Source: a virus (taxonomy: Duplodnaviria > Caudoviricetes). Taken from it: a stretch of DNA of 53,840 nucleotides. The DNA lies in IMG/VR virus record IMGVR_UViG_3300032295_000430, positions 1 through 53,840 of that record; one strand, 5' to 3'. Positions 2,613 to 53,641 of the stretch are shown piece by piece (position 1 is the stretch's first letter; each line of letters starts with the position of its first letter). The notes under the pieces are model-generated. The model worked only from the letters and a program-made list of their open reading frames with translations, searched no databases and had not been told where the DNA came from. A program made the translations under genes and the position numbers.

Positions 2613-2954
2613 ATGGCAATCTTTTTAGATACGCGTGGCTACTCTGATATAGCGATTGCTGTCTGTGATCGCTGTAAAATGAAGCGCCCGCATGCCGAGC
2701 TTTCTAAAGACCCAAACTTTCCGGGTTTGATGGTGTGTGAGCAGGGTTGCAAGGATCAGTTTGATCCATATAGGTTACCGGCAAGAAAGACTGAAAGAAT
2801 TACGCTTCGATTTCCCCGGCCTGATGTAAGTGTCGCAGTTGACCCAGATGCGCTGTTGACAAATGGCCCGAACAACTATGAGATAACGACCGAAGGCAAT
2901 ACGGACACACCGGAAAACAACGGCAATCTCGACAACATTGCACCGAGTCCATAA
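2613..2954 (+). CDS. conserved virion-module protein with Zn-finger-like CDRC…C…C
   Basis: AVCDRC…VCEQGCKD; RFPRPD. Confidence 0.65.
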   Translation: MAIFLDTRGYSDIAIAVCDRCKMKRPHAELSKDPNFPGLMVCEQGCKDQFDPYRLPARKTERITLRFPRPDVSVAVDPDALLTNGPNNYEITTEGNTDTPENNGNLDNIAPSP

Positions 2955-9018: not shown

Positions 9019-9502
9019 CCCTTATGTGATTATCGGTGCGCTTGTTTTTGCTATCTGCTCGTACTTCTATGGGCATCATACGGGTGTGCAGGTAACCAAG
9101 GCGGAGTGGGAGGCAGAGAAAGCGGTAGCCGCCGCAGAAGCTGCAAAGATATTGAAAGCGGAGCAGGACAAAGTACGTGAGTTCGAACATCTTCTGGCGA
9201 ACACACAAAACAAAGTGGAGAAGGTATATGTTGACAAGATTAGGACTGTGGAAGTGGAGCGCAAGCAGCTTGTTGATGTTGCTCGTACTGACGGGTTGTT
9301 CATCGACGCCGCGTGTCCAGACAGTAGTAACGCCGTGCCCAGTGCTGCCCCCAGTACCAGCAGCGATAATGGAGGAAAGAAAGCCCGACTTTCAGGAGAG
9401 GCTGCGGAAGCTCTTATCACCATTGCAGCCGACGCCGACGAAATCGTCCACCAACTAAAAGCTTGTCAGGAGATACTGAGGTTGGAACGGGAGCTTAAAT
9501 GA
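9011..9502 (+). CDS. Rz: Rz-like inner-membrane spanin
   Basis: N-terminal TM followed by coiled coil; LSGEAAEALITIAADAD…LKACQ C-terminus; ATG 9011. Confidence 0.8.
   Translation: MPNPYVIIGALVFAICSYFYGHHTGVQVTKAEWEAEKAVAAAEAAKILKAEQDKVREFEHLLANTQNKVEKVYVDKIRTVEVERKQLVDVARTDGLFIDAACPDSSNAVPSAAPSTSSDNGGKKARLSGEAAEALITIAADADEIVHQLKACQEILRLERELK
9228..9458 (+). CDS. Rz1: Rz1-like outer-membrane lipoprotein spanin embedded in Rz (+1 frame)
   Basis: GGAGAAGG RBS; lipobox LVLTG-C; Pro-rich mature part; fully inside Rz. Confidence 0.8.
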   Translation: MLTRLGLWKWSASSLLMLLVLTGCSSTPRVQTVVTPCPVLPPVPAAIMEERKPDFQERLRKLLSPLQPTPTKSSTN

Positions 9503-9930
9503 CCTGCGCAGTAGAAAGCTGCCAAGCAAAGGCTTTGGCAAAAGGTATGTGCAACGCGCACTACATTCGTGCTCGTCGCGGGAAAGACTTAGCCCCTCCC
9601 GTACAGTATTTTAACGCCACCAAAACTTGCATAGAATGCGGGGAGCCTACCAAGGGCAAAGGCGGACATGGGCGCTGTGCAGCGCACTACAAACTACATA
9701 AGCGCCTGACGTTTAAACAAAAGTTAATTGATATGCTGGGCGGAAAGTGTCAGATGTGCCAAGGTCAGTTCCACCATGCGGCGTTTGATTTTCACCATAG
9801 AGAAGCCAAAGTTGAGAACATAAGCAGTATGTTTGACTCGAAGTCAGAAGCTGAAGTTTTGGAAGAAGTTAAAAAATGCACATTGTTGTGCGCCAACTGT
9901 CATAGGATTCATCATGCGCGAAAACTTTGA
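9499..9930 (+). CDS. HNH homing endonuclease with N-terminal Zn fingers
   Basis: CQMC…FDFHH…LLCANCHRIHH. Confidence 0.85.
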   Translation: MTCAVESCQAKALAKGMCNAHYIRARRGKDLAPPVQYFNATKTCIECGEPTKGKGGHGRCAAHYKLHKRLTFKQKLIDMLGGKCQMCQGQFHHAAFDFHHREAKVENISSMFDSKSEAEVLEEVKKCTLLCANCHRIHHARKL

Positions 9931-14358: not shown

Positions 14359-14643
14359 ATGATCGACTTTATAAAACTATTTAACGCTACAGCAAAAGTC
14401 GCAAAACCGATGTCCCCAGACTTTGATAATGCAAAAAGTCTGGATGATCAACTTCAAGACATAGACGTAGACAGTCTTGATAGTTTGCTCATTGGTTTGT
14501 ATATGTGTGAACTCTACGGGATTCCTGAAGACAAGGGGAAAGAGCTTGTCCCTGTGACAGTCCGCGAGATCCACGACTTTTTGATGCAACACAAGACGAA
14601 AGAGCCGGAGTCCATTGAGGCGGCGATAGAGGCCATCAAATGA
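14359..14643 (+). CDS. acyl carrier protein (ACP)
   Basis: 94 aa, acidic; LQDIDVDSLDSLLIGLYMCELYGIP contains the DSL phosphopantetheinylation Ser (S39) and helix II; TVREIHDFL helix. Confidence 0.85.
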   Translation: MIDFIKLFNATAKVAKPMSPDFDNAKSLDDQLQDIDVDSLDSLLIGLYMCELYGIPEDKGKELVPVTVREIHDFLMQHKTKEPESIEAAIEAIK

Positions 14644-15749
14644 TCTATCTCACTCACTATAGGACGGCGGCTACCAGTAACGTGGAGTTGATGGAGGACG
14701 CAGTCTATCCGCAGCGGGTGCACTGGTTCCCAGAGACTTACGCCAAGGTGAAGATGGGGCTGACGTACCCGCCTCATAAGCTGGCTGAGAAGGTGCTGGA
14801 TCCTGCCCTGCTGAAGATGCTGAGGGAGCAGGAGGTAGGCAAGACGGCCTTTATTCTGGCAAGCGGTAACTCTCACTTTGCCGGGATTAACCAGCGCAAG
14901 TACGACAGCAAGCTGAGCTATGACTACAAGTTTTTGCCACTTACTCTGACTCAGGTGTATGCCGGCAGGGTAGCTCAGCAGTGTGGGGCTCAGGATCATG
15001 TTGTGACGGACGCCAGCGCCTGCGCATCTAGCCTGAAGGCTTTGATGGATGTGAATACGCTGATGAGTCACTACGGGTTTGCACGGGTCATTGTGTTGAC
15101 GGTAGAGGATGGGGTATCGAATGCTGTCCTGCAGTTCTTTGGTGAATCCAAGGCCGTCTTGACGGATGAGGAAGAGAAGACGGGGATCAAGCCGAGTGCC
15201 TTTGACAAGCAAAACCGGGGCTTTTATGTTGGACAGGGAGCCGCTCTTGCCGTCTTTGACAACTGGCTTACCCTTGATAAGACGGGGGATACGCCACTTG
15301 CTCAACTCTGCGGGGCTTATACCGCCTCAGAGGCCAGCACTAATGCAATTGGGCAACTAGAGAACGGTAGTGGCTTCATTAAGGCTATGGAAGGCGTCTT
15401 TGAGTTTTCTACGGTCAAGCCTCAGGATGTCAGAATTGTAAAAACCCATGGTACGGGGACAATTTCTAATAACATTTCGGAGTTAACTGCTTTACAATCT
15501 ACACTTAAAAGTTTCGTTGCCACCTCATACAAGCAGAGAATCGGTCATACGATGGGTGCGAGTGGGCTGCTGGAGACTTTGATGCTCTTGGAGGACATGC
15601 GTTCAGGCGTGATTCCAGAGATTCCGAACCGGACGGAAAGTGATGAAGTATTTTTATCTGAGCCTATCAGCCCGCCACCCGGCGCGGTGCTGAGCCTTGC
15701 AGCGGGGATGGGAAACGTCTACAGCGCAGCAATCTTTAAACCTATGTAG
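14640..15749 (+). CDS. beta-ketoacyl-ACP synthase (FabB/FabF-type condensing enzyme)
   Basis: SACASS (C128), KTHGTGT (H270), SYKQRIGHTMGASG (H303), GFYVGQGAA, SLAAGMG. Confidence 0.92.
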   Translation: MIYLTHYRTAATSNVELMEDAVYPQRVHWFPETYAKVKMGLTYPPHKLAEKVLDPALLKMLREQEVGKTAFILASGNSHFAGINQRKYDSKLSYDYKFLPLTLTQVYAGRVAQQCGAQDHVVTDASACASSLKALMDVNTLMSHYGFARVIVLTVEDGVSNAVLQFFGESKAVLTDEEEKTGIKPSAFDKQNRGFYVGQGAALAVFDNWLTLDKTGDTPLAQLCGAYTASEASTNAIGQLENGSGFIKAMEGVFEFSTVKPQDVRIVKTHGTGTISNNISELTALQSTLKSFVATSYKQRIGHTMGASGLLETLMLLEDMRSGVIPEIPNRTESDEVFLSEPISPPPGAVLSLAAGMGNVYSAAIFKPM

Positions 15750-15757
15750 GTATTAAG

Positions 15758-16195
15758 ATGCTTGTTGATAGCAAAAAGAACTTGCTGGAAGTCGAGCCAA
15801 TCATCATTTTAGGTGCCGATGAGACTGGCTCAAATCTGCCGCCGGCAACTATTTATGCTGCCGTTGTCACCGAGCTCAATCAGAAGAATGTGACCCTGTT
15901 TAAAGAGGGCAATACGCTATTCATTATTCACCATAAAGGCCCACGCGAGGGCTTTTTCCGTGCCATCAACGCCGATACCGCAAGAAACTATCTTGAGAAC
16001 TCTTACACGTTTATTCAAGCTGCGCGTAAGTATGGGTATGATGTCCTGCATTCTCATTTTGAGAACCCCACAGTATTAAATATCTTTAAGGCAATCTCTC
16101 GTAACCCACCCTTTCCGGGCATGGGATACACAGCAAAGGAAGAAAAGGGCGGCATTTCTGTCACGTTGAAGCTTGGTGAGCCAAGGGAGATATGA
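15758..16195 (+). CDS. hypothetical protein, possible GNAT-fold acyltransferase
   Basis: Strand-strand-helix-strand-N-helix pattern (NTLFIIHH/EGFFRAINAD/TARNYLENSYTFIQAARKYG/YDVLHSHFEN/PTVLNIFKAI); T7 gp13-equivalent position; function inferred. Confidence 0.45.
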   Translation: MLVDSKKNLLEVEPIIILGADETGSNLPPATIYAAVVTELNQKNVTLFKEGNTLFIIHHKGPREGFFRAINADTARNYLENSYTFIQAARKYGYDVLHSHFENPTVLNIFKAISRNPPFPGMGYTAKEEKGGISVTLKLGEPREI

Positions 16196-16196
16196 C

Positions 16197-18194
16197 ATGA
16201 GTGCTGTTGTCAAAGCTGTTGAGAAAGTCGTAAGTACCGTTGTCGATGTGGTCGAGGCGGTCATTAATGATCCGTTGCCAACGCTTGCCACCATTGGTTT
16301 GTCCATGGTTGGCATCCCACCGTATGTTACGCAGGCTGCAATCACTGCCGCTAGGGGCGGAGACCTTGAGGATATTGCAAAGTCTGCCGCGATTGCTTAT
16401 GCCACGCCAGCAGTTGCCGCAAAGATTGCCCCCGCTGTAGGTTCCACAGTTAGCACTGTAGTTACAAATGAAGCTGCTGCAAAGGCGTTAACTGCTGCCA
16501 CAAGTCAAAGTCTGGTCGCCGGTAGCTTAACCGCTGCGACAGGTGGTGACTGGCAGCAAGCGGCTGCAGGTGCCTTTGCTGGATCTATGGCCGCTTCTGG
16601 CTACGATGAATATGTCGCCCCAAAGGTAATGGCGCAGGCTCAAAGTTTGGGTCTATCTGCAGAAAGCCACGCAAATATTCAGAACGCTTTGAAGTCGAGC
16701 GTTGCCTCTGGTACTGGGGCTGCTGCGGCTGGTGGTGACTTTGCTACCGGCTTTGCCAACGCTTTTGTTGAAAGTGGTTTTGAGACATTGTCCGCAAAGG
16801 CCGACCAAGGCTTGCAGGACATGAAAAAGTCCTTCTTGAAGGACAAAGGCATGCAGGACAATGAGCCGACCCGTGCTGGCATTCCAAGCGACATGGTGCC
16901 CGAGGTTCCTGAGTCTCCTGAAGGAAAGTACGCTCAAAAGAATTCTGTCTCAATTGAAGACCAGTTAGATCAAATAGCTGCGCAGCCAAAAAATCCTTAT
17001 TTGGGCAGGCAATTGGGTGATGCTTTTGCAACTACCGATGGAATATCTGGTTTGGATATTTCAGCGCCATCTAATATTTCGTCTTTAAAGCAATTTGAAG
17101 CCCTTGAGGGAGAAACAGGCACTCCTGTAGTTAAGGTAAAAGATAAAGAAGGGGTTGTTTCTTACCAGCGCGACATTAAAAAAACAGATGCCTCTGGAAA
17201 GGAAACTGGTTACACCATTGTTTATGACCCTGAGTTTAATCAATTTTATTATGAATATGGCAATGTCTCTCCAGAAGGGAAGGGCGCAGAAGTTTTTGCC
17301 AGCAAAACTCGACCCGGCACAACTTTAGATGATTTAAAAAGGGGCGCATTTTCTGGCAATACTTCTGATTTGTCCAAGCTGACTGAGTTTGGTCAGTTGC
17401 CATCAGGCGTTGATACAACCGGCATTCAGTCTGGGGCTTTGTCTTCAGGATCTTTGAGTAAGATTCTTTCACAGGCAAACAAATCATCTGATGCTGCTGT
17501 TGAGGCAAAGGCTCAGGCGGCTATTAATCCAACGCCAGAAAATATTGCTGCTGCTGAGCAAGCACAACTGACTGCTGAGTTGGATCAAAAGGTTCTTGCT
17601 GACGCCCAAAAACAAATTTCTGTTGAGGAAGTGCCTCCAACCGGTGAGGTGCCACCTCAGTCTGCAAATGCTCCTGTGGCGAGTAATGTGCCGGCTCAAC
17701 CTGCAGAAAGCGCCACGCCGACAATTAATCAAACTAACGAAAGAATTTTATATTCAATCTTGTCTGGTAACGCAACAACTGGCGCTCCAACGCCCGTTCA
17801 AGGGCAGACAGGCGCAGACGCTTCAGGATTGTCTCCTCTGCAGCAGGCTGGCATAGCGGACGTTGAAGGCGCTGGTGGAATTTCTGATCCTATTGGCGGC
17901 CAGATAGGGAAGATTGGTACATTGACTGGTGGTACCAGAATGCCCGGAACTGGTGGTTCTGGTTTGTCTTTGAATGCGCCTAGTGGTGGTTTGCAGTTCT
18001 CGTCTTTTGGAAGAACTGGATATGCTCCCCAACAAACTAATCTTGTTGGGTCGTTGATACCAAATTTATTGACTGAATTGAATAATCAATCATTAATGAT
18101 GATGTCCCCAGAGGAATATGCATTAAGAACGCAGGCGGGGAATATTTTTAGAGTTGCGCGTGGTGGATTGATCACGCTTAAAAAGCAGAGGTAA
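16197..18194 (+). CDS. putative internal virion / DNA ejection protein 1
   Basis: Amphipathic N-terminus plus G/A-rich hydrophobic helices; after the nozzle; ends in a VARGG tag; ATG 16197 with GGAG RBS. Confidence 0.6.
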   Translation: MSAVVKAVEKVVSTVVDVVEAVINDPLPTLATIGLSMVGIPPYVTQAAITAARGGDLEDIAKSAAIAYATPAVAAKIAPAVGSTVSTVVTNEAAAKALTAATSQSLVAGSLTAATGGDWQQAAAGAFAGSMAASGYDEYVAPKVMAQAQSLGLSAESHANIQNALKSSVASGTGAAAAGGDFATGFANAFVESGFETLSAKADQGLQDMKKSFLKDKGMQDNEPTRAGIPSDMVPEVPESPEGKYAQKNSVSIEDQLDQIAAQPKNPYLGRQLGDAFATTDGISGLDISAPSNISSLKQFEALEGETGTPVVKVKDKEGVVSYQRDIKKTDASGKETGYTIVYDPEFNQFYYEYGNVSPEGKGAEVFASKTRPGTTLDDLKRGAFSGNTSDLSKLTEFGQLPSGVDTTGIQSGALSSGSLSKILSQANKSSDAAVEAKAQAAINPTPENIAAAEQAQLTAELDQKVLADAQKQISVEEVPPTGEVPPQSANAPVASNVPAQPAESATPTINQTNERILYSILSGNATTGAPTPVQGQTGADASGLSPLQQAGIADVEGAGGISDPIGGQIGKIGTLTGGTRMPGTGGSGLSLNAPSGGLQFSSFGRTGYAPQQTNLVGSLIPNLLTELNNQSLMMMSPEEYALRTQAGNIFRVARGGLITLKKQR

Positions 18195-18196
18195 TT

Positions 18197-19573
18197 ATGG
18201 CAGACGAAACATCAAATATTGATTACAGCAGTATTGATGACATTGGAACTGAATATTCCGCTAATAATGATCCATCAACAGTTCCTGTGGCGCTTTCTTC
18301 TGCGGGCGCTGGAGATGCTTCATTAAAGGATATTGCAAGTGCCATTATGGGCACAGGCACAGCAAAGGGTGCTGCTCTTGGCGCATTGTTTACTGAGCTT
18401 TTAAAGCAACAAAAGTCTGGCGAGGGCGTTGTCCGTCCGATGGATATGTCTCAGAACATCATCCCCGGAAGAGACACTATAGTTGCTGCGCCAAGGTTCG
18501 TGCCTTATGCTGAGTATGGCGCTCGTGATGTGCCTGCAATGTCTGAAGACATGATGCGGTCTTTCGGTGCTCCGACTGGCCTTGGTTCTCTGATGCCGAT
18601 GAGCCAGTATTCATCTATGCCAATGATGGCCTCTCGCCCTGCGACAACCTTCTCTTCTGTTGGTAGTGGCCGCAACGTAATGCCAACCCTAAACCTGACG
18701 CCTCGTTCTAACGAGCCAATCAGCCCTCTGACGGGTGCTTTGTTGGGTGGTGCTTTGGGTTACTTGGTGACGCCGGAAAGTGCTGCCTCTAATGCTGGAT
18801 CTCGTGCCGTGGGTCAACTATATGACATTGCTGGCGGCGCTTTGGGGAATATAGGTGGTGCATTAGCTGATTTCTTTAAGCCAAGGCCGCAGGATAATTC
18901 TCCTGATTCAAGCCTTGATCCTTACACTTATGTGCCGCCATATGACCCTGATTATGATACACCCTCCACAAATATCTTTGGTGGCGGCATGGGCAGCAAT
19001 TCATACTATCAGCCAAGTACGTCTTATACGTATACACCACCTATTACGTCCGACTATTACACCCCTACTACGAGGCCGACTTACAATTATGGCAGCGACA
19101 GCAGCAGTTATTGGGGCGGAAAAGACGGCGGTATGGCAACGCCTTTGATGGCTGAGGGTGGCTCAGTTCAAGAGCCAAGCTTTTACACCTATGGCACTGT
19201 TGTTGACCCTATGCAAATGCTTGGCGGTGCTCAAAACACTGGTATGGCACAAGGCGGTATGGCACAAGGTGGTTTGCATGTTCCGACCGTTGATGGCCGT
19301 CATGACTACCGTGCCGGCTCCCGCGTCATGGGTGAGGGTGATGGGCAGTCGGATGACATCCCTGCCATGCTTGCAGACGGCGAGTATGTGTTTGATGCGG
19401 ATACCGTAGCCCAACTTGGCAACGGATCCTCAAAGGCAGGTTCTGACATGCTGGACAAGTTCCGTGAAGAAATCCGCGCCCATAAGCGTTCAGCGCCTGT
19501 GAATAAAATCCCACCGGCATCCAAATCACCTCTACAGTATCTGAAGCAGGCTCAATCGAGGAGCAAGAAATGA
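18197..19573 (+). CDS. putative internal virion protein with GG tags and C-terminal GDGQSDDIPAMLADGEYV domain
   Basis: Low-complexity middle; KDGG/MAEGG/MAQGG x2, then a domain resembling tape-measure C-terminal GEFV domains. Confidence 0.6.
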   Translation: MADETSNIDYSSIDDIGTEYSANNDPSTVPVALSSAGAGDASLKDIASAIMGTGTAKGAALGALFTELLKQQKSGEGVVRPMDMSQNIIPGRDTIVAAPRFVPYAEYGARDVPAMSEDMMRSFGAPTGLGSLMPMSQYSSMPMMASRPATTFSSVGSGRNVMPTLNLTPRSNEPISPLTGALLGGALGYLVTPESAASNAGSRAVGQLYDIAGGALGNIGGALADFFKPRPQDNSPDSSLDPYTYVPPYDPDYDTPSTNIFGGGMGSNSYYQPSTSYTYTPPITSDYYTPTTRPTYNYGSDSSSYWGGKDGGMATPLMAEGGSVQEPSFYTYGTVVDPMQMLGGAQNTGMAQGGMAQGGLHVPTVDGRHDYRAGSRVMGEGDGQSDDIPAMLADGEYVFDADTVAQLGNGSSKAGSDMLDKFREEIRAHKRSAPVNKIPPASKSPLQYLKQAQSRSKK

Positions 19574-20055
19574 GACGCGGCCCAAGATATGAGGCTATGC
19601 AAAAGGGGGAATCGCATTATTTTACTGGCGTCCCCTGTAAGCATGGTCATATTTCCATGAGGCACACAAAATGCAAATCGTGTATGGAATGCCGCGCTAT
19701 AGTAAACAGAAGATTAAGGGAACAAGAATCGCCAGAACAAAAAGAAACTAGGCTTGAAATGTCTCGATCTTGGTTTAAAAAGAACAAGCATATGCGTTCT
19801 GTTTATGAGGCGGAGTATCAACATTCAAAACTTCAAAGAACCCCAAAATGGCTTAATGAAGAAGATTTTTGGATGATAAAAGAGATATATAGTTTGGCGG
19901 CTTTAAGAAGTAAGGTTTTTGGTTTCTTGTGGCATGTTGATCATATTATCCCTGTCAGAGGGAAAAAAGTATCTGGTCTTCATGTTCCGTCAAATCTTCA
20001 AGTTATACCTTGGATTGATAACGTAAAGAAGCATAACAAGTTTGATGGAGTATAA
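19570..20055 (+). CDS. HNH homing endonuclease
   Basis: PCKHGH…CMEC; QRTPKW…WHVDHIIP…VSGLHVPSNLQVI…N; AT-richer than its flanks. Confidence 0.9.
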   Translation: MRRGPRYEAMQKGESHYFTGVPCKHGHISMRHTKCKSCMECRAIVNRRLREQESPEQKETRLEMSRSWFKKNKHMRSVYEAEYQHSKLQRTPKWLNEEDFWMIKEIYSLAALRSKVFGFLWHVDHIIPVRGKKVSGLHVPSNLQVIPWIDNVKKHNKFDGV

Positions 20056-20954: not shown

Positions 20955-23009
20955 ATGGCAGATAACGAGAAGGGCGGGCTATCTTCTGTAGACCCTATGG
21001 CCGATTTTTCACAAAAAATTCGGCAGCAAACCTTAGAAAGCCAGCAGGTTTTGGACGCCCATCGTAAACGGTTGATGGAGTTAGTGTCCTCCCGTCAACA
21101 GATGCCGTTCGACCCTGCCATGATGGCGCTGTCGGCTGGCTTGTTGTCGCCTACAAAGACTGGTGGCTTCGGTGAGTCGCTTGCCGCTGGTATGACCGGC
21201 TATGCTGCGGAAGCAGAGAAGCAGTTCCGCCGTCAGCAGGAAGAGGCCAAGCTTGGGTATGAGCTTGAGATGGCTGCGCAGGAGCAAAAGCGCAAGATGA
21301 TGGGTCAGCAGTTCTTTGGTGAGCTGGCGTCAAGAAAGAAGACTACGCTTTCGCCGCAATCGGCAACAGAAGCTCCCGCAGTAGTGCCTTCAGCAGCTCC
21401 TTCAGATGCATCCAGTGCACCTCCTGTAGTAAGAGCAGACGCTTCCATTCGTTCAGAAGTTGCGCAAGCGCCTGTAAAAGAAGCGCCACCGGCTCCAAGT
21501 TCGCCTAGTCAAGTGTTGGCGCAGGTTAACAAGAATGACCAGCAAATTAGAAACTTGCTCGGGAAGATTCAAACTAGCGGTTCAGATGCATTTGCTGACA
21601 TCAGCAATGAAGAGATTGCTATGCTTGAAATGTACTCCCCAGAGTACGCAAAGATGATCAACAGCTACCGTGATGCTGTAAACAAAGGCACCACGCTGGA
21701 TGTATCAAGGCTGAATGCTTTCGTGTCTGCATCCAAGCTTGAGCTGGACAAAGTTCAAGAGATGCGCAATCAAGCTGAACTTGAATTGAAACAGAAAGAA
21801 TCTAAGCTCAGAGAACGTGAGGTTGGAACCAAGGAAGAAAGCATTAAACGTAATTTGCCGGGCGTTGGCACAACTGAAATGCCTTTGAAGTTTTGGAATG
21901 CGCTTGACGCTGCCGAAGACTTTGACGCAGTTCAAAAGCTTTACAAGAAATTTAATTTGCCACTTAACACAACTGTTGGTACTGATGGTCAGTTGCGCTT
22001 TATGACGCCTAGTGAAATCGAGGTAAAGAAAGAGCGCGAACAGGCGCGGTTTACTCAATCTCCAATCAAGCGTCAGATACCTGAGCTTGGCACTGGAACG
22101 TATGAGATCAACCCAATTGACTTTGCTGACTATCAGGCTGCAAAGAGAAAAGGGCCAGATGCTCTGCAGTTGTGGTTCAACCAAAGTGAATTCTCTGGTC
22201 AGAACGTCAAAATACCTAATGCAAAGATTGGTAACTTTGGCGCAGACTCAAAGGTTGAGAGCGTTGAAGAGCGTGCTGTCACAGAGTCCCGGCAGAAAAA
22301 GCTTGCTGAGAAAGAAGCCGAAAACACTATTGCTTTGGATGGCACTATCCGTAACGCTGGCAGACAGGCTGATGCAATTATTCAGAACTCCGACAACTTG
22401 TTAGATCTAATGAAGAAGCCTGAATACTCTGGTGCTTGGGGTATGTTCTCTGGCCCCGGCGTCAAGAATGCCGCCGTTCGATTCATCAGTAGCGGTATTG
22501 ATGTGGGTAACTTCAGGGTTGGTATGCCTGCGTTTGAAGCTGCTTTGAAGCAGGCGAAGATGACTGACGATCAGGTTGAGGCGTCTATTCGTGCTATGCA
22601 GATCTATGGTGAGCAGAAGCTTCAGGTTGCTCGTCGAGACCTTGCTGGTGAGGGTTCTGTGTCTGACGGTGAACGTCGATTGGTCGGCGATGTTGCCGGC
22701 GGCGTTGATATGCCTCTTAAGTCTGCAATGGCACTTGCTGAGTTGTTTAAATATCGTGGTGAGTTCGACAAGAAAACCGCCACGATGTACAACCAGTGGC
22801 GTGACAAGAACCCTGCTATGGCTGGTAACCGCTTCTTTGACACTGACGAATATCGTTCTTTGGTTAAGAGTTACGATGTTGTAATGAATGATCTGCGTCA
22901 GAAGTATTACCCAAGTAAAACAAAGCCAGCGGCCAAATCAGAATCTTCGCAGTCAAGTACAGCACCGGCCAAAAAAGGCAAAGAAAATCCTTACTTACAG
23001 GGGCAATGA
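20955..23009 (+). CDS. putative ejection protein (helical)
   Basis: 684 aa; AGLLSPTKTGGFGESL; coiled coils; GSVSDGER. Confidence 0.55.
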   Translation: MADNEKGGLSSVDPMADFSQKIRQQTLESQQVLDAHRKRLMELVSSRQQMPFDPAMMALSAGLLSPTKTGGFGESLAAGMTGYAAEAEKQFRRQQEEAKLGYELEMAAQEQKRKMMGQQFFGELASRKKTTLSPQSATEAPAVVPSAAPSDASSAPPVVRADASIRSEVAQAPVKEAPPAPSSPSQVLAQVNKNDQQIRNLLGKIQTSGSDAFADISNEEIAMLEMYSPEYAKMINSYRDAVNKGTTLDVSRLNAFVSASKLELDKVQEMRNQAELELKQKESKLREREVGTKEESIKRNLPGVGTTEMPLKFWNALDAAEDFDAVQKLYKKFNLPLNTTVGTDGQLRFMTPSEIEVKKEREQARFTQSPIKRQIPELGTGTYEINPIDFADYQAAKRKGPDALQLWFNQSEFSGQNVKIPNAKIGNFGADSKVESVEERAVTESRQKKLAEKEAENTIALDGTIRNAGRQADAIIQNSDNLLDLMKKPEYSGAWGMFSGPGVKNAAVRFISSGIDVGNFRVGMPAFEAALKQAKMTDDQVEASIRAMQIYGEQKLQVARRDLAGEGSVSDGERRLVGDVAGGVDMPLKSAMALAELFKYRGEFDKKTATMYNQWRDKNPAMAGNRFFDTDEYRSLVKSYDVVMNDLRQKYYPSKTKPAAKSESSQSSTAPAKKGKENPYLQGQ

Positions 23010-24475
23010 TGGATAAGGCAACGCCAATTCTTGAGAGTCCGCAATGGAAAAACGCCTCCAAAGAAGAGAGGGAGTTGATTTTTGCTCGTCGTGTTGCAAA
23101 AGATCCTGACTATGCAAATGCTGACGGTGAAACTCAGGCGTTGATACGTCAGCGTTTTGGGCTGGGAGATGTGACGCCAGTTGAAAAGCCTGCCCCAGCA
23201 CCAGCAGAAGCCCCTGCTGAGGCTCCCGCTGAAGAGTTTTCTCCTGTTGCGCCAATGCCTGAGCACATTGCAAATCCGCCTGCTATGCAAGGCCGTAGTT
23301 TCGACAATGTCGATATGGGCTTGGCTGGGGGTAGCTTAGGTGCCGTTAAAGGATTGCTAGAGAAATACCTTCTTTCGCCTGATAAGCTCCAGCGCGATCT
23401 GTATGCCCGGTCAATTAAAAATGTTCTGGCGGAAGCTGGTATAGACCTTTACCGCGTCAAAGATGAAGCCACTTTGATTGACATGGCGCGTAACCTGACT
23501 GGTCAGCAGTTGGCTGGCAAGCAGGCTCAATTAGGGCAATTGACTGAGCAGGCTGGGCAGTTCCGCAGCATGCTGCCACCTGAGCCACCAATTAGTACAG
23601 GTTTCCCTTCGGCGCTTGACGATCTAGCGCAGGCTGGTCGTGCCTCTGGCGCTAAGGTAGAGGGTGCCTCTGGTGCTTCTAACTGGATGCGTGCCATGGC
23701 AGGTGAGGGGCATCAGCTTCCGAATGTAGCCCTTGAGGCTGCACAGGACATGACTAAGACCAACCCAAGGGGTGGTCAGGCGCTGATCAATAAAGACTTA
23801 GCCAATCTGCAAAAGATTAATCAATTGGGTGGTGGTCAGTACCAGCTTGCCGGCCAAGGTCGTGGTCAGTTGATGCTGCCACCGCAGGAAGCCGCTGCAG
23901 TTACGGCTCAAGAGTCCGCTAGAGTCGCCCAGCAGGCCGAAGTAGCCAGAGACGCGCTTCGGATCATCCAGCCCCAAATAGCGACCGTAGAGGCTGAAAT
24001 AGCCCGTCTGTCGCGCCTTGGTAAGGATGTATCTCAGTTCACAGCACGGCTTGAGGGTTTGCGTAGAGCTGAGCGCACTGCTCGTAATGCTCTTGGCCGG
24101 GGCTTGAATATTCCTGCGCAGGCAGAGATTGGGCCTCTGGCTAGGCTTGGCTATAGCTCCTCTGTTGGGCGTGTACTGCCTGTGTTGGGTAACGCTTTGG
24201 CGGGCGCTAGTGCCTTCTATGACATTGGTGAGGCGTTTGACCGTAGCAGCAACAAAGACCCTCTGGGGGCTGCTGTGCACGGCCTGTCGGCTGTATTTAA
24301 TACGATGTCTATGGTGCCGCCAACCTCTCCAATCGCAGCGGGCGTTAAGGGGGTGGGCATACTGGGAAGCTTAGGAATGATGGTTCCTAAATTTATGCTC
24401 CCCGGTGAGTCAGATCTTATGAACAGGATTGAGCAAATTCGCCCCGGAGAAAGATTCCCCGCAGGGCAGAAATAG
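23006..24475 (+). CDS. putative ejection protein with C-terminal hydrophobic helices
   Basis: Last gene of the late operon. Confidence 0.55.
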   Translation: MMDKATPILESPQWKNASKEERELIFARRVAKDPDYANADGETQALIRQRFGLGDVTPVEKPAPAPAEAPAEAPAEEFSPVAPMPEHIANPPAMQGRSFDNVDMGLAGGSLGAVKGLLEKYLLSPDKLQRDLYARSIKNVLAEAGIDLYRVKDEATLIDMARNLTGQQLAGKQAQLGQLTEQAGQFRSMLPPEPPISTGFPSALDDLAQAGRASGAKVEGASGASNWMRAMAGEGHQLPNVALEAAQDMTKTNPRGGQALINKDLANLQKINQLGGGQYQLAGQGRGQLMLPPQEAAAVTAQESARVAQQAEVARDALRIIQPQIATVEAEIARLSRLGKDVSQFTARLEGLRRAERTARNALGRGLNIPAQAEIGPLARLGYSSSVGRVLPVLGNALAGASAFYDIGEAFDRSSNKDPLGAAVHGLSAVFNTMSMVPPTSPIAAGVKGVGILGSLGMMVPKFMLPGESDLMNRIEQIRPGERFPAGQK

Positions 24476-40823: not shown

Positions 40824-43800
40824 ATGCCTAGCCCAAAAGACATTAAGAACCTACTCAAAGCAACCCAAGGCACGAAGGCCGGCAAGGCAGCGGATCTGGA
40901 GGAGTTGCTGGCGACGCTGCCCAAGGGCACCAAGGCGCAGCAGCTTGAGGCTGAGCTGATGTTCAAGCGGCTGGCTGAAGAGCAGGCGGCACGGTATGCC
41001 GCTCACACGCCACCGACCGAGCAGGGTAATGCCGCGCTGTCTGAGGCCAAGAAGGCGCTGAAAAAGAAGCAGGCTCCTGCCGTCATCATCCCCAGCAAGA
41101 TCTCAAACGTCCAGAAGGCTATCCGCGAAAGCAAGGGGTCGTTCGGTGCTAAGCGTGTGCAGCGGGCTGCTGATGAGATCAAGAACCTTGAAAGGCTGTA
41201 TACCGAAGAGGCGCTAAAAAAAGCGTTCGGCGGCGATAACGCCAAAGCCTTGATGACTATGAACCCGGAGGATTTTGAGAGATTTGCAATTCCGCTGGTT
41301 ATGCAAGAAAAAGGGTGGCCGGGTTCTGGGCCTAGGAAAGAAACCCTTCCAACACGGGAATACATCAATTATTTATCGGGCATTGATGAATTTCATGATG
41401 TCCCATTCCTTGAAATAAATAAACAACGACAAGGCTTGCCTTTAATACCTTTTGTCTCTGGGCATGAGGGGCGTCATCGTAATCGGGCGCTAGCTCAACG
41501 TGATGAGCCTGCTGGCTTAGTTCAATTTCTGCCCCGTGCTGAGTTGCGTGAGCCCTTCCCCCGTAGAGACCAAGAGGAATATCTGGAGGCGCTGAGGAAT
41601 GAACTGGAGATGACTGGCAACATGGTCTTGCCTGAGCGATACCTTGAAGATGGGGATGTCTACATCAAACGCCCAGAGATTAAACTGCCAGACATCTACG
41701 CCGAGGGTGGTGGCGTGCACATGGCCGGTGGTGGCAAAGCACTCAAGGCGCTGAAAGGTGCTGGCAAGGCGGCAGACGCCACGCAGGATGTCCAGTCGAT
41801 AGTGAGTGCCGGCAAGCCACTGACAGCCGCTGAGCGTGCCATGGTGGGCAAGCTTGCTGAGGAATACACCGCTAATCAGCCCGTCACCAGATTGTCTGAG
41901 GCGCTTGGCAACGTAGGCGCTGAGGGCAAGAACCTCCGGGTTACGCAAACCGACCGCACAAGCGCTCGGAACTTGGGTGGTGCCCCGTTCTCCATGATGC
42001 AGAAGGTTGACCCTCGTTACGCACAGGCCAAGGCAACGTGGGGCGTTAAGACGCCGGGTGCGGCCAAGAACATTACCAACCAGTCAGATGCGGATGTCAT
42101 ATGGTCTACCCTGATTGGATCAAAGACACAACACCGGTCTAACGAGCTGATTTTTGACAAGCTGTACAAGGCTTTCCAGAAGTCGGCCAAGGAAGGCAAC
42201 CTAAGCACAGAGTTGCGTACTAAGTTCAATGCGGCACTGGAGCCCATCTTTGGCGAGGGCGCTGACATTCTTGACCCGAAGCTTCGCAAAGAGATTGACA
42301 CGTTTGAGAAGCGGGCAATTGTCGGCAACCTGTTGTTGGGCAAGGACATTGGTGGCGCACAGCGTGGTGGCTCAATCATCCCCGGCATGAAGATCATGGC
42401 CGAGACTACTGAGCCGATGCTCAAAAACGCTGAGACGTTCTCTATCGGCCCACGCTTGTTTACATTGGATCAGGGTGTGATTACCCGCCCCGACCTGCAT
42501 CCTGCGTTCCCTGAGATATTGACGGGCGAGGATCTGAATCAGCTATTCATACCTGTCCCCAATCGTATTGCTCTGCCTACGTTCAATGAAGAGTTCAGGG
42601 CTAGGACAGGGCGCAAGAAGCCGTCATATTACGACCTGACGATGACGCCAGAAGGTGACCCGTACCCAACGCAGTTCGTTGACGAAGATTACCTAAACTT
42701 CCTCCAGAAGGAAGGCTACGCCGATGGCGGTGCTGTACACATGGCAGGCGGTGGTGATGCGGGCGAGGTGTCTGGCGATATGTTCAAACCTAAGCCGCTG
42801 ACAATTCCCTCCCCGCTGACTGACATGGTTGATGCAATCAGGCGGCAGTTCGGCAAAGAGAAGCGCTCGATGAGCAAGCCCGGAGCCGCGACAGACGTTC
42901 TGCTGCGTGGCCCCGTTGCGTTTGCTGCTGGCACGCCGATGGATCTGGTGGAGATGGCTGGTCAAGGTATTGACTATCTGCAGACAAGAATCCCCGGCCT
43001 GCGCACAAACGCTTCCGTAATGGATGAGCCAAGGTCTGTAGTGGACAAGCGCACACCAGACACAAATTACGAACCAAGGTTTAAATTTGCCCCAGAGCCA
43101 AAGGTGCAACCTAGCCTTCCGTTTGATGCAAGCCGATACATTCAGACAAGCGACCCGAAGCTGCGTGCTTTTATAAATAAGCGTCAAAAAGAAATAAATT
43201 CTGGCCTGCAACTTCCAATCGTTGAAGAGGCTCGGATGCCTTACGGTACAGAAGACTTCCAAAACAAGCTGCGTCAATCCGGCCTGACCACGGATGAAGA
43301 GCGCCCGCTGTTTGAGATTGGCACTGCGATTGCGTCCCCGTTTGCCGCACAGAAGGCGCTGAAGTACGGCAAGGCAGGCGCTCAGGCGCTGGCACCTACG
43401 TTCTCAGACATCTTGGAGACGCAGCTTCAAAACGTGACTGCCCCGATGCGTATGAGCATAGTTCCTGAAGGCGGCACTGTTGGCGGCAAGCTCAAAGCCC
43501 CGGCTAATGACATTGGCTTCTACAACCCCGTTGAGAAGGCGGCACTGAATGTGCAGCGTAAGAAGGGGCCGGGATCTGCGTTTGTATCCGACCTGAAGAA
43601 ACAGCCGGGTGTGAATGACGAGCGCCTTGCTGAGCTTGGCCTGAGCGACCTAGCATCCCGTCCTAATGTGACGAGGGAAGAGGTGCTGGCCGCTGCTCAG
43701 CAGAACCGCATACCGTTGCGTGAGACTGTCCTTAAAGAGGGTAAGGAGAGTCTGGAAGAGCTTAGCGACAACATATATCAGCTCAAAGATGACATGTCCT

Positions 43801-45695
43801 ACATGGACAACGACAGCCGGGAGTGGGCTGAGGCTGACCGTACTTTGACAAGGCTGCAGAAAGAATATGAGGCAGAGTCTCAAGCTAAGCGGGCTATGTT
43901 CGGGCCTAAGACTCATGCCGACTACAACATGCCCGGTGGTCAGAACTACCGTGAGATTCGTGTTGCGTTGCCTGCCGTAGAAAAGCCTCAATACTTTATT
44001 GCGTACAAAGACGGCAGCACCATGGGCACGGGGTTTGCCAGCAAGGCTGATGCAGAGGCTGAGCTTGCGGACTTGTTTGGCAGCAGGCCAGATCTTGAAA
44101 TTCGGCAAGGTAGTGGTAGCCGATCAATGACGGCAAAAAATGAAGAAAACTTCATGAACTCAACCCACCATGGTGATGAGCCCAACGTACTGTTCCACCT
44201 TCGCGTAGCTGATCACACTGACGTTGAGGGCAAGAAGGGTTTGTTGATTGATGAGTTGCAGTCTGACTGGCATCAACAGGGTAGGGAAAAGGGATATAAA
44301 CAAAATGCAGAGAAGGATTACAACAGCTATTTTGAGTCTTTGGGTGATCGTTTTATTGCTGAGCAAAAACAACAAAACATAAAAGCTGGGATGACCCCAA
44401 CAGATGCAGAATATTACGCCACAGAAATGTACTCAAGTTTAGCTCAGAGAGAAGGCCATCGTGGAATTGCTCGTGCACTGGGTGAGGAAGACAAACTGGT
44501 TGAGCTATCCAATCAATATAAACGAGACATAAACGCTTTACCTGACGCCCCTTTCAAAGACAACTGGTATCAGCTTGGCCTGAAGCGTGCAATCAAAGAG
44601 GCCGCAGACAGCGGCAAAGAGCGCGTGTACCTGACTACGGGGCAGAGGCAGGCTGATCGGTATGATTTGAGTAAACAGGTTAACCAAATTGATGTTGTAC
44701 CAAGAACGGATGCTGCAACAGGAGAGCAAACAAAAAGCATTGGGTTAAATCTTACTAACGGTGATTTTTATCGACTGGGCGTAGATAAAAATGGAATTGT
44801 GGACAATGTCAGCAATCAATCAATTTCCAATTTAAAAGGCAAACCTCTTGCAGAAGTTGTTGGAAAAGATGTTGCAAAGAAAATTTTGGAAGAGAATGCA
44901 CAAGTCTTGTCCGGCCTCGACCTCAAAGTCGGTGGCGAAGGTATGCGCCAGTATTACGACAAGAACTACCTGAACTTCTTGAAGAAGTACGCCAAGCAGT
45001 TTGGTGCGACGGTGGGAGAAACTACACTTCCGGGTGCGGCTAAAACACGCAATCAGTTGTCCGCTAGTGATATGCATAACATGATGGACAACCCTGAATT
45101 TAAAAAAATTCTTGATGAAGAGTTTATGAAGTTGGCCGACAAGCCTTTAATTACTGGAAAAATTGAACCGCAGGGCAATAATGAATTCAAAATAATGTGG
45201 AGTGATGGATCTTTTTCTGGTGGTTACAGCGCAGAAGGCGCAAGAGAAAGACTCGCCGTAGGCCGCAATTTAAAGAATGAAGAAGGCCAAGCATGGAACG
45301 CCGCATTAAAGCGGTTTGGTGGTGAGAAGGTGTACTACATCGACATCACACCAAAGATGCGCGAGTCTGCCGCCAAAGGCCAATCGTACAAAGATGGTGG
45401 CGCAGTAGCCATGGCCGAAGGCGGTCAACTGACCTTTGCCAAAGCCAACCAACTTCTGCAGCAGTATGTCGCCAATATGGCTAATGATGGCGCTGTACAC
45501 ATGGCTGAGGGTGGCGCTGTGGACTACGAGTCCCGCTTTAATGAGATGCTGCAGAAGCATGTGCAGGGCATGGCAGAGGGCGGCGAAGTGAATACCTATG
45601 ATTCAGACCCCGACATGTCTGACGGTGGTCGGTTTATTCAAGCGCCTGCCTTTGCTGATGGCGGCGCAGTGAAATCAATCTGGACAGTTAATTAA
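40824..45695 (+). CDS. 1623-aa multidomain (polyvalent-type) protein segmented by GG tags
   Basis: GHEGRHR (ParB-like) in segment 1; IDELQSDWHQQGR…PDAPFK in segment 3; AxGG-AVHMAGGG linkers. Confidence 0.75.
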   Translation: MPSPKDIKNLLKATQGTKAGKAADLEELLATLPKGTKAQQLEAELMFKRLAEEQAARYAAHTPPTEQGNAALSEAKKALKKKQAPAVIIPSKISNVQKAIRESKGSFGAKRVQRAADEIKNLERLYTEEALKKAFGGDNAKALMTMNPEDFERFAIPLVMQEKGWPGSGPRKETLPTREYINYLSGIDEFHDVPFLEINKQRQGLPLIPFVSGHEGRHRNRALAQRDEPAGLVQFLPRAELREPFPRRDQEEYLEALRNELEMTGNMVLPERYLEDGDVYIKRPEIKLPDIYAEGGGVHMAGGGKALKALKGAGKAADATQDVQSIVSAGKPLTAAERAMVGKLAEEYTANQPVTRLSEALGNVGAEGKNLRVTQTDRTSARNLGGAPFSMMQKVDPRYAQAKATWGVKTPGAAKNITNQSDADVIWSTLIGSKTQHRSNELIFDKLYKAFQKSAKEGNLSTELRTKFNAALEPIFGEGADILDPKLRKEIDTFEKRAIVGNLLLGKDIGGAQRGGSIIPGMKIMAETTEPMLKNAETFSIGPRLFTLDQGVITRPDLHPAFPEILTGEDLNQLFIPVPNRIALPTFNEEFRARTGRKKPSYYDLTMTPEGDPYPTQFVDEDYLNFLQKEGYADGGAVHMAGGGDAGEVSGDMFKPKPLTIPSPLTDMVDAIRRQFGKEKRSMSKPGAATDVLLRGPVAFAAGTPMDLVEMAGQGIDYLQTRIPGLRTNASVMDEPRSVVDKRTPDTNYEPRFKFAPEPKVQPSLPFDASRYIQTSDPKLRAFINKRQKEINSGLQLPIVEEARMPYGTEDFQNKLRQSGLTTDEERPLFEIGTAIASPFAAQKALKYGKAGAQALAPTFSDILETQLQNVTAPMRMSIVPEGGTVGGKLKAPANDIGFYNPVEKAALNVQRKKGPGSAFVSDLKKQPGVNDERLAELGLSDLASRPNVTREEVLAAAQQNRIPLRETVLKEGKESLEELSDNIYQLKDDMSYMDNDSREWAEADRTLTRLQKEYEAESQAKRAMFGPKTHADYNMPGGQNYREIRVALPAVEKPQYFIAYKDGSTMGTGFASKADAEAELADLFGSRPDLEIRQGSGSRSMTAKNEENFMNSTHHGDEPNVLFHLRVADHTDVEGKKGLLIDELQSDWHQQGREKGYKQNAEKDYNSYFESLGDRFIAEQKQQNIKAGMTPTDAEYYATEMYSSLAQREGHRGIARALGEEDKLVELSNQYKRDINALPDAPFKDNWYQLGLKRAIKEAADSGKERVYLTTGQRQADRYDLSKQVNQIDVVPRTDAATGEQTKSIGLNLTNGDFYRLGVDKNGIVDNVSNQSISNLKGKPLAEVVGKDVAKKILEENAQVLSGLDLKVGGEGMRQYYDKNYLNFLKKYAKQFGATVGETTLPGAAKTRNQLSASDMHNMMDNPEFKKILDEEFMKLADKPLITGKIEPQGNNEFKIMWSDGSFSGGYSAEGARERLAVGRNLKNEEGQAWNAALKRFGGEKVYYIDITPKMRESAAKGQSYKDGGAVAMAEGGQLTFAKANQLLQQYVANMANDGAVHMAEGGAVDYESRFNEMLQKHVQGMAEGGEVNTYDSDPDMSDGGRFIQAPAFADGGAVKSIWTVN

Positions 45696-52582: not shown

Positions 52583-53641
52583 ATGGGCCAATTTAAACCA
52601 ATGGTCAAAATGATGACCACGGAGCCTACCGTTGAGCTCAAACTCGCAAAAGGCGGCGCTGTAGCAATGAAAAAGGGTGGCTCTACTACCAAAGCCAAGA
52701 AGATGGCTATGGGTGGTTTAGGCACTATGGCTGCTCCTTCTATGCCTTCCAATATGCCTGCGTCAATGCCGGCAGGCCCAGCCCCTAAGAAGCCTTCTAT
52801 GGCTTCTCGTCGCAAGGCAATGATGGCGTCTAAGATGCCAGTACGCCCTGTGATGAAAGACGGTGGCATGCCTGAGTCACTGAAGAAGCACGCCGATATG
52901 CCTGCATCTAAAGCTCACAAGGGCTTGAAGACAGGTGGCGTTGTGATGGGTCAGGGCGGCTACAAGGATGGCTGCAGCGTAATCCCTGTGAGTGCCTCTA
53001 AAAAGGGCGCTGAGGGCTACGTTGAGACCAAGATGCACACTGCAACCCCTGATCGTTCGCCAGCTAAAACTGGTGGCGTGAAGATGGGCAACGGCGGTGG
53101 CTATAAAAAGGGCGGTGTGGCTAAGTATGCTAAGGGTGGCGGCGTTGAAAACAACGTCAGCACCACTCCTGCTGGCGTAACCAACACCACTACTGGTGGC
53201 GTTAGAAAAGGCAATGCTGGTGGTTATCGCAAAGGCGGTGCCACAAAAAAGTTTGCTGACGGTGGGGCTGTGCAGGACGATGGTCGTGCCGTCAAGATGC
53301 CACAAGGTAGTAAGCGTCCTCCAACACCTGTAAGTATTAATCAACTCTCTGGCACCTACAAAAAGGGTGGCAAGGTTAAGAAGTACGAAGGTGGCGGTGG
53401 CGTAAGCGACAACGAAATGGCTTACAACAAGTTTTATGAGGATGAAGAGAAGGAAAATCGGGAGACTCGTGATCAATTCATGAGAGCTTTGAAGAGCCCG
53501 ATTAGTACCATCAGGAAGATTCCTCGTAAGATTGGTGAGGCTATGGATGCATTGGGTGGTAAGGGCTCTGTTAGCACCAAAGAGCGCGAAGTCACTCGCA
53601 CTGTTGTCCCCGGCAAGAAACGTGGTGGCAAGGCTTGTTGA
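52583..53641 (+). CDS. basic low-complexity protein with many [MYFL][AKR]xGG repeats
   Basis: AGGAGG RBS; K/G/M-rich. Confidence 0.8.
   Translation: MGQFKPMVKMMTTEPTVELKLAKGGAVAMKKGGSTTKAKKMAMGGLGTMAAPSMPSNMPASMPAGPAPKKPSMASRRKAMMASKMPVRPVMKDGGMPESLKKHADMPASKAHKGLKTGGVVMGQGGYKDGCSVIPVSASKKGAEGYVETKMHTATPDRSPAKTGGVKMGNGGGYKKGGVAKYAKGGGVENNVSTTPAGVTNTTTGGVRKGNAGGYRKGGATKKFADGGAVQDDGRAVKMPQGSKRPPTPVSINQLSGTYKKGGKVKKYEGGGGVSDNEMAYNKFYEDEEKENRETRDQFMRALKSPISTIRKIPRKIGEAMDALGGKGSVSTKEREVTRTVVPGKKRGGKAC

Follow-up and report, generated by a model that had tools for sequence, protein, structure and literature searches.

The window analysed here is the whole of IMG/VR virus record IMGVR_UViG_3300032295_000430, a stretch of 53,840 bases with a completeness estimate of 96%, and we focused on one element in it, the C-terminal module of the putative tape-measure-like virion protein P0001. 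The module occupies window positions 19121-19573, from K309 to the stop (the last 150 codons of P0001 plus the stop codon), and consists of a cluster of short hAxGG motifs (h = M, F, Y, L, I, V or W; called tags below), a conserved core and a helical tail. A first-pass annotation of the region had noted KDGG, MAEGG and MAQGG-MAQGG ahead of the core, and all of these strings are present in the P0001 C-terminus: KDGG at residues 309-312 (19121-19132), MAEGG at 318-322 (19148-19162) and MAQGG-MAQGG at 350-359 (19244-19273). The 15-bp tandem duplication that it had placed at 19241-19270 was also recovered, with Tandem Repeats Finder carrying the repeat on to 19273 (Table 1).

Table 1. Features of the P0001 locus, of its neighbours and of the other tag-bearing genes in the window. 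A1, full-length alignment; A2, module-only alignment.
Feature	Position	Strand	Basis or description
P0001, tape-measure-like virion protein (putative), 458 aa	18197..19573	+	ORF list, translation
Gly/Ala-rich hydrophobic helix, residues 43-71, GTAKGAALGALFTELL	18323..18409	+	Conserved; AlphaFold2 helix
Second hydrophobic/helical segment, residues 177-226, PLTGALLGGALGYL...	18725..18874	+	Conserved
Low-complexity linker rich in G, S, Y, P, D, T	18885..19117	+	Composition of residues 201-310
Tag pair KDGG-MATPLM-AEGG, residues 309-322	19121..19162	+	Conserved as KDGG[ML]A.PLMA[DE]GG
15-bp tandem repeat encoding MAQGG-MAQGG	19241..19273	+	Tandem Repeats Finder: period 15, 2.2 copies, 94% matches
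Core GEGDGQSDDIPAMLADGEYV, residues 379-398	19331..19390	+	Invariant in A1, A2; common to tape-measure proteins
C-terminal helical tail, helices 401-407, 413-431, 445-456, with HKRSAP..KIPP..KSPL.YL	19397..19564	+	AlphaFold2
P0002, 673 aa, ends ...FRVARGGLITLKKQR	16173..18194	+	Upstream ORF, adjoins P0001
Beta-ketoacyl-synthase-like gene	14640-15749		Among virion genes, two genes upstream of the module protein; Pfam 3.4e-16 and 1.6e-9
HNH/endonuclease VII-like gene	19570..20055	+	phrog_1035 3.5e-19; Pfam HNH 7.7e-4, below family cut-off
Conserved downstream neighbour, 294 aa	20058..20942	+	BLASTP to the gene after the module gene: GB2A 1.4e-24, MW202545 3.9e-18
P0122, polyvalent-type, 1623 aa, between terminase and portal	40824..45695	+	8 tags
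P0123, basic, 352 aa, after the capsid gene	52583..53641	+	3 tags

Outside the module, P0001 is composed of two hydrophobic stretches and a linker. In the 29-sequence alignment A1, G58, A59, G62 and L64 of the first helix are invariant, although its Kyte-Doolittle mean over 19 residues (1.14) is moderate and under that of a classical membrane helix; P177, G180, L182, G184 and G188 of the second segment (mean 1.21) are at least 90% conserved, and AlphaFold2 places helices there at 177-191, 200-214 and 216-226. The linker is conserved neither in length nor in sequence. The AlphaFold2 model of the whole protein is mostly disordered (pLDDT 46.6, pTM 0.21), and that of the module built with a 45-sequence alignment scores little higher (pLDDT 55, pTM 0.32). 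Neither model is globular. Both agree, at low confidence, on the C-terminal helices, three of which are predicted C-terminal of the core (the string VMGEGDGQSDDIPAMLADGEYVFDADTVAQLG spans residues 377-408), and both model the core as coil; in the monomer module model the protein's own N-terminal tags (model residues 1-15) fall below pLDDT 50.

The upstream reading frame, P0002, is probably the N-terminal half of a once-fused protein. Its stop codon (18192-18194) is followed by the ATG of P0001 at 18197, and MW202545 encodes one 639-aa protein whose N-terminus matches P0002 and whose C-terminus matches P0001. Fused forms in relatives span 639-1029 aa; those of L006 and L007 (879-1029 aa) contain tandem P0001-like units, each closing with KDGG.ATPLMK[DE]GG, and the module protein of MW202545.1 carries one and a half tandem module copies (two profile matches in one 644-aa open frame). 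The GB2A homologue, of 580 aa, was named tape measure by its depositors. Where the protein is split and the upstream ORF is long, as in the window and in the relatives L003, L004 and L005, that ORF ends in a tag-like motif (..RRGGL.. or ..KIGGL..; the C-terminal VARGG of P0002 is a looser tag match), while three short forms (L039, L063, L064) have a short upstream ORF without such an end. Through all this variation the core keeps its place: SDD[IVL]PA lies 67-78 aa from the C-terminus in all 70 ORFs recovered from 80 related viral loci (the other 10 loci had no ORF with the exact core string), the complete ORFs among them ranging from 397 to 2269 aa.

The module is both strongly conserved and widespread. 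The C-terminal 150 residues matched 2474 proteins at E<=0.001 among 4317 scored candidates, metagenomic relatives with 65-94% identity among the best 120. In A1, the tag residues G311, G312, A319, G321, G322, A351, G353, G354 and G359 are invariant or nearly so, as is the whole of G379-V398. The doubled MAQGG reads MA[QK]GGMA[QH]GG in close relatives and MAQGGEAKQGG in distant ones; since the doubled motif is kept in the relatives' proteins, we rejected a recent slip private to this genome and regard it as an old feature of the clade. Tags are part of the module in cis: 234 of 262 family proteins have one or more hAxGG in the 120 aa ahead of the core, with peaks of tag distance at 30-39, 60-69 and 90-99 aa. 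P0001 itself has three [MFY]AxGG motifs, against 0.08 expected, a number reached in 0 of 5000 within-protein shuffles. Searched against the six-frame translation of the window, the module profile matched one place (E 4.9e-52; next E 1.4), in agreement with the first-pass annotation, which had the domain occurring once per genome. Across sequence clusters at 50% identity, 21,937 representatives matched at E<=0.001 and 10,174 at E<=1e-10; the best 150 of the 21,937 were inspected and were all close family. A divergent copy is present in pelagiphage HTVC023P (E 5.7e-6), where it reads GDKDEDTMLAQLADGEFV and has Glu at the position of S385. The copies of Pfam and NCBIfam that we searched hold no model for the module, a literature search on the pentapeptide strings gave nothing relevant among the matches listed, and a second one, on tape measure, turned up no paper that uses 'GEFV'. 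An ESM Atlas lead to crAss_CARG1 (0.83) was discarded, as it was under a meaningful level and had no Pfam confirmation; the other Atlas leads were to uncharacterised viral clusters only.

The clearest relationship of the module is to tape-measure proteins (TMPs), a link that the first-pass annotation had named for siphophages and that our searches bear out. The C-terminal 159 aa matched 12 PHROG families at E<=1, seven of them tape-measure families (best E 9.6e-6) and the other five of unknown function. A tblastn search with the 54-aa core gave 362 phage records at E<=1; 8 of the best 60 rows were the family itself, and 51 of the other 52 were annotated as tape measure. Using the A2 profile, we found matches in the TMP of Arthrobacter phage Seahorse (residues 927-963 of 1350, E 1.9e-11) and twice in that of Mycobacterium phage Appletree2 (953-993 and 1378-1431 of 1639), the second Appletree2 copy being directly preceded by FALGG. 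In the PDB sequence set, A2 matched 8zdo_S (Douge gp16, E 1.7e-9, two copies) and 8rk3_A (JBD30 gp46, residues 1013-1056, E 5.7e-4); these TMP chains were found with A2 only, and full-length A1 gave 0 matches there at E<=10. Across these profile matches, E-values range from 1.9e-11 to 5.7e-4. In TMPs, FALGG or YAxGG directly abuts the core. The motif series named for lambda gpH was likewise located in J02459, with FATGG at residues 733-737, GEFVF at 754-758 and YATGG at 778-782, just C-terminal of the approximate processing region of that protein; gpH is without the S-D pair of the core. By sequence comparison, then, homology is shown between the module and a motif that siphophage TMPs carry in their C-terminal third to tenth: JBD30 gp46 in its 'hook', Douge gp16, Seahorse, Appletree2 and lambda gpH (729-782) all have the same hAxGG followed by G.G..SD.I.A.L..GE[FY]V and then ..a..V...G, and the protein around it is long, poorly structured and has hydrophobic segments. 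The differences are that the motif is fixed near the C-terminus in the present family, where TMPs continue for 100-700 aa, that the family has its own conserved tail (HKRSAP..KIPP..KSPL.YL), and that the window shows no tail-tube or tail-chaperone genes among the 47 ORFs scanned.

For JBD30 gp46, the authors predict a hook at residues 1022-1066, made of two helices and a beta-hairpin, propose a cut at 1066 and liken the hook to the element by which T5 keeps its TMP in the opened hub (PMC11445458). In T5, pb2 is cut during tail assembly, and 43 C-terminal residues of the processed form, pb2*, sit in a crevice between open-hub subunits (bioRxiv 10.1101/2022.09.20.507954). Lambda gpH is cut at roughly residues 690-730, a glycine-rich stretch, with the site and the catalyst both stated to be unknown (Ur-lambda paper, PMC12617516).

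The setting of the module gene is not that of a siphophage TMP gene. The late genes run in the order small and large terminase, the 1623-aa protein P0122, portal, GroES-like gene, capsid, the 352-aa basic protein P0123, adaptor-like gene, tail and fibre genes, lysis genes, ketoacyl-synthase-like gene, P0002 (673 aa) and P0001 (458 aa), HNH gene and a further three ORFs. In its capsid protein the phage shares 90% identity with MW202545, 76% with Caulobacter phages RW, GB2A, RLK and KcrB, and approximately 40% with roseophages CRP-901/902 and with HTVC023P. No major-tail, sheath or tail-chaperone family was matched among the scanned ORFs, and ORF 2954-5578 (874 aa) has a match in the portal-tail complex of Legionella phage LME-1, to its orf22 (PDB 9EFK, E 3.8e-13); LME-1 is described as short-tailed and HTVC023P as podovirus-like in morphology. 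For these reasons (the missing tail families, the orf22 match and the morphology of HTVC023P), we treat the window phage as a presumably short-tailed phage of HTVC023P/Riverwalk type. The orf22 match also offers a lead to tail structure in this phage group. The MW202545.1 record (L002/L086) describes Siphoviridae, yet annotates no tail tube, chaperone or sheath gene. Siphophage TMPs set the length of the tail and, as trimers or hexamers, fill a long tail tube. A siphophage TMP gene lies after the major tail gene, between the frameshifted chaperones and the distal tail or hub genes, an order that the annotations of Seahorse and Appletree2 show and the window does not: upstream of the module pair are the ketoacyl-synthase-like gene and a 145-aa ORF. 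The module gene instead heads a gene block after the tail genes. In GB2A and MW202545 this block closes, three genes downstream, with a gene whose annotation is 'lytic tail protein' or 'transglycosylase SLT domain', and in Synechococcus phage MinM2 (L088 15886-24297) it opens with the module protein and ends in a 2803-aa protein annotated RelA/SpoT.

We estimate an even chance that the element serves for docking or anchoring at the C-terminus of a tape-measure-like ejected protein, disordered and variable in length, in a short-tailed phage of HTVC023P/Riverwalk type. The protein, here split into ORFs 16173-18194 and 18197-19573, would consist of two Gly/Ala-rich hydrophobic helices, a low-complexity linker and one extended C-terminal module of one to four h-A-x-G-G turns followed by G.GDGQSDDIPAMLADGE[YF]V and then by helices. 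Such a module would fold only upon assembly and would keep the protein's C-terminal end in place in the tail channel or hub, before or after ejection, on the model of the JBD30 gp46 'hook' and the T5 pb2* C-terminus, while the hydrophobic helices may take part in envelope crossing. The tags would then be short beta-turn elements of the module and not its substrates. Judged by its sequence relatives, the module is a homologue of the structurally unseen 'hook' region of siphophage TMPs and looks like a docking piece and not an enzyme; the anchoring role is suggested by analogy with what has been proposed for JBD30 and T5. Podoviruses have internal or ejection proteins of the T7 gp14-gp15-gp16 type, which are in the particle and leave it upon infection, and the present arrangement resembles theirs in that the module gene follows the tail genes and heads a block of large uncharacterised proteins, in that the block ends, in relatives though not detectably in the window, in an annotated lytic transglycosylase or a giant protein, and in that the protein is predicted to be disordered with hydrophobic helices. 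It differs in sequence, with no similarity to T7, P22 or solved ejection proteins in the library and PDB scans, none of which was a search aimed at the T7 type.

Several observations weigh against the docking or anchor interpretation. The profile matches lambda gpH weakly (1.7 bits, E 0.017 when that sequence was searched by itself), and gpH residues from about 690 to 817 are missing from the structure described in PMC12617516. The TMP parts built in the structures are described as the last 33 residues for JBD30 and the last 42 for Douge; with only these C-terminal ends built, the module has no solved structure, and its role in TMPs is therefore itself a proposal. Within the window, ORFs 20955-23009 and 23006-24475, downstream in the block, have no lytic or other domain detectable in the library scans and no BLAST match to the relatives' lytic genes. 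Our literature search found no virion proteomics of the module protein or of cultured relatives, and the part of the Riverwalk-cluster paper available to us gives no morphology. S385, D386, D387 and E396 are strictly invariant within the family (A1 and A2), an invariance that exceeds the needs of a simple docking strand and could, as a pattern of conserved residues, point to metal binding or chemistry. Finally, a docking role for the module leaves the tags in other proteins, P0122 and P0123, unaccounted for.

The first-pass annotation had the tag occurring in many proteins. We found it, as [MFY]AxGG, enriched in three, P0122, P0123 and P0001, with a tag-like end in a fourth, P0002, so the observation holds for a smaller set; the glycine-rich fibre ORF 5578-7371 has one strict tag, which is at chance level (948 of 5000 shuffles). 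The eight tags of P0122 compare with 0.13 expected (0 of 5000 shuffles) and include twin 13-mers, YA[ED]GG[GA]VHMAGGG, at residues 292-304 and 632-644 and a tag array at 1523-1617; this array and that of P0001 share their spacing, although a local alignment between them is not significant (E 0.47). Shorter relatives of the P0122 N-terminal half carry ART-PolyVal, LPD23 and PcfJ domains, and on that account we call P0122 a polyvalent-type protein; Pfam gave no family in the window's own P0122. At least one tag is present in 102 of 105 of these shorter relatives, typically DIYA[KE]GG.V and then MAGGG; 74 of their 186 tags fall within the last 120 aa, and Y724, A725, G727 and G728 are invariant, closing a conserved domain. 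Like the polyvalent proteins described by Iyer, Burroughs and Aravind 2017 (PMC5512222), P0122 (and not the module) is very large, multidomain and encoded beside the portal gene; such proteins are proposed there to be packaged and delivered, and the available main text of that paper does not contain the hAxGG motif (0 occurrences of glycine, linker, GG motif or tape measure).

An invariant GHEGRHRNRA (within residues ~210-290, window 41450-41700), placed shortly before the first P0122 tag, reads as HExxH; the zincin reading found no match in Pfam or the PDB. The same residues may be a ParB-like GxxRxxA box, as one relative has a precomputed PF02195 match, and an Atlas lead for the region (0.81) is to a cluster with ParB_N in 26% of its members.

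P0123 has three tags where 0.10 are expected (1 of 5000 shuffles). It is lysine- and glycine-rich, with 18 separate GG sites, many of them K[KD]GG or hAxGG, and PHROG scans of P0123 and of tag-only segments gave nothing beyond one match at E 0.17. A syntenic counterpart identified by BLAST in MW202545 (449 aa) has five tags, and one in MinM2, syntenic after the capsid gene (308 aa), has two; tag-rich ORFs likened to P0123 by size and tags alone are found in genomes G001 (368 aa, 5 tags), G002 (419 aa, 4 tags) and G005 (405 aa, 2 tags). Two proteins besides the module protein are tagged in MW202545 (5 + 2), MinM2 (2 + 2), G001 (5 + 2), G002 (4 + 4) and G005 (2 + 2). By comparison, such tags are absent or nearly so from GB2A (17 CDS examined) and from G003 and G004 (one single tag each), and in HTVC023P, of which 44 of 60.9 kb were examined, only glycine runs match the tag. 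Tag-rich partner proteins thus accompany the module in six of ten module-bearing genomes examined, and the other four have retained the module. In the tail-gene regions of lambda (J02459 9000-20000), Seahorse and Appletree2, tags are found in the TMP alone.

The wider distribution of the tags could mean that they, with or without the core, are substrates, namely sites at which virion proteins are cut during maturation or after ejection by a protease encoded elsewhere or by the host, on the model of the lambda and T5 TMPs, which are cut near this region. We consider this unlikely. The lambda gpH cut falls in the glycine-rich stretch just before FATGG at 733 (PMC12617516), T5 pb2 is processed in tail assembly (bioRxiv 10.1101/2022.09.20.507954), and the cut proposed for JBD30 at 1066 is right behind the hook (PMC11445458); the gene split just past a tag-like motif in the window and in L003, L004 and L005, the twin P0122 13-mers lying 340 aa apart like domain boundaries, and the invariant motif closing a domain in the polyvalent relatives, together with the tags near their ends, are also what processing sites would give. 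This conserved domain-end motif fits a docking strand equally well, however, and cleavage at the tags is putative: no protease was recognised among the scanned ORFs, none of the homologues examined ends exactly at GG, and the HEGRH beside the first P0122 tag may belong to a ParB-like box instead of a zincin site.

Alternatively, hAxGG may be an address label, a short linear motif of proteins packed in the head and exported through the tail (here the polyvalent-type P0122, the basic P0123 and the tape-measure-like P0001) that mediates their incorporation or stacking, with the core as a separate anchor. This we also find doubtful. It would account for the enrichment in exactly these three proteins of the window, for the same pattern in MW202545, MinM2, G001, G002 and G005, for the near-universal tags of the polyvalent relatives and for the like spacing of the P0122 and P0001 arrays, insofar as arrays without significant alignment can be compared, and it suits the proposal that polyvalent proteins are packaged and delivered (PMC5512222). 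Against it, the presence of the three tagged proteins in the particle is putative and the binding partner of the tags hypothetical, four of the ten module-bearing genomes have no clear tags outside the module protein, and so short a G/A-rich motif could have arisen by convergence. A combined version, in which hAxGG is a common address label and the tape-measure-like module is the hub where the labels dock by strand addition or are cut, seems to us improbable.

The least favoured explanation is that of the first-pass annotation, in which the C-terminal domain acts in trans, as a reader that binds the hAxGG tags of other virion proteins or as a protease that cuts them. A single-copy module beside tag enrichment in two further window proteins, the invariant or nearly invariant S385, D386, D387, E396 and HKRS stretch, and the processing of lambda gpH beside its motif copy by a catalyst stated to be unknown (PMC12617516) are compatible with such an activity. 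So is co-occurrence: among large contigs chosen for the tag-ending polyvalent domain (44-56 kb, 82-100% complete), eight of eight hold exactly one module, and tag-rich phages of this kind, whose common lack of the domain the annotation had named as evidence against itself, therefore do not lack it. These eight contigs very likely represent one phage lineage, in which co-occurrence may reflect shared descent, and so they are not independent evidence. (A degenerate DNA pattern for the twin tag returned only 10 contigs of 4-13 kb, too short for genome-level counts.) Proteases that cut after Gly-Gly are found in other viruses, such as the adenovirus protease and pS273R of African swine fever virus, and the likeness here is in the idea alone, that several virion proteins share a short x-x-G-G motif; none of the scanned window ORFs resembles such an enzyme, and the residues before the putative cut differ, with Ala fourth and an aromatic residue or Met fifth. 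We consider a trans-acting reader or protease very unlikely, since the module has no confidently predicted fold (pLDDT 55 and 46.6, where low confidence does not prove foldlessness), the core common to TMPs is only ~45 aa, HTVC023P has Glu in place of the candidate Ser S385 and lambda gpH is without the S-D pair, searches of Pfam, NCBIfam, PHROGs and the PDB matched no protease family, the tags belong to the module itself, in cis, the tail-gene regions of lambda, Seahorse and Appletree2 confine them to the TMP, and GB2A, G003, G004 and HTVC023P carry the module without tag-rich partners in the regions examined.

The beta-ketoacyl-synthase-like gene is conserved in MW202545 (63% identity). The HNH gene and the module-gene stop overlap at ATGA (19570-19573), so that the HNH gene stands between the module gene and the conserved 294-aa neighbour, and no matching gene is found at the equivalent place in MW202545 or GB2A. 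A second HNH-type endonuclease gene lies within the late region at 9499-9930.

The module is very common, yet is without a Pfam or NCBIfam model in the copies searched and without a solved structure, and it adjoins the processing region of lambda gpH, for which cut site and catalyst are stated to be unknown (PMC12617516). If labels do dock or are cut at a module hub, the same logic would explain the processing of gpH beside FATGG...GEFVF...YATGG, and a function would be assigned to a motif of ~22,000 protein clusters. That the GG motif recurs in polyvalent proteins gives a lead on how cargo may be loaded or cut. At the extreme C-terminus of proteins in HTVC023P-type short-tailed phages, the module would link podovirus ejection proteins to TMPs and offers a small, testable element for the holding and release of such proteins in the tail.

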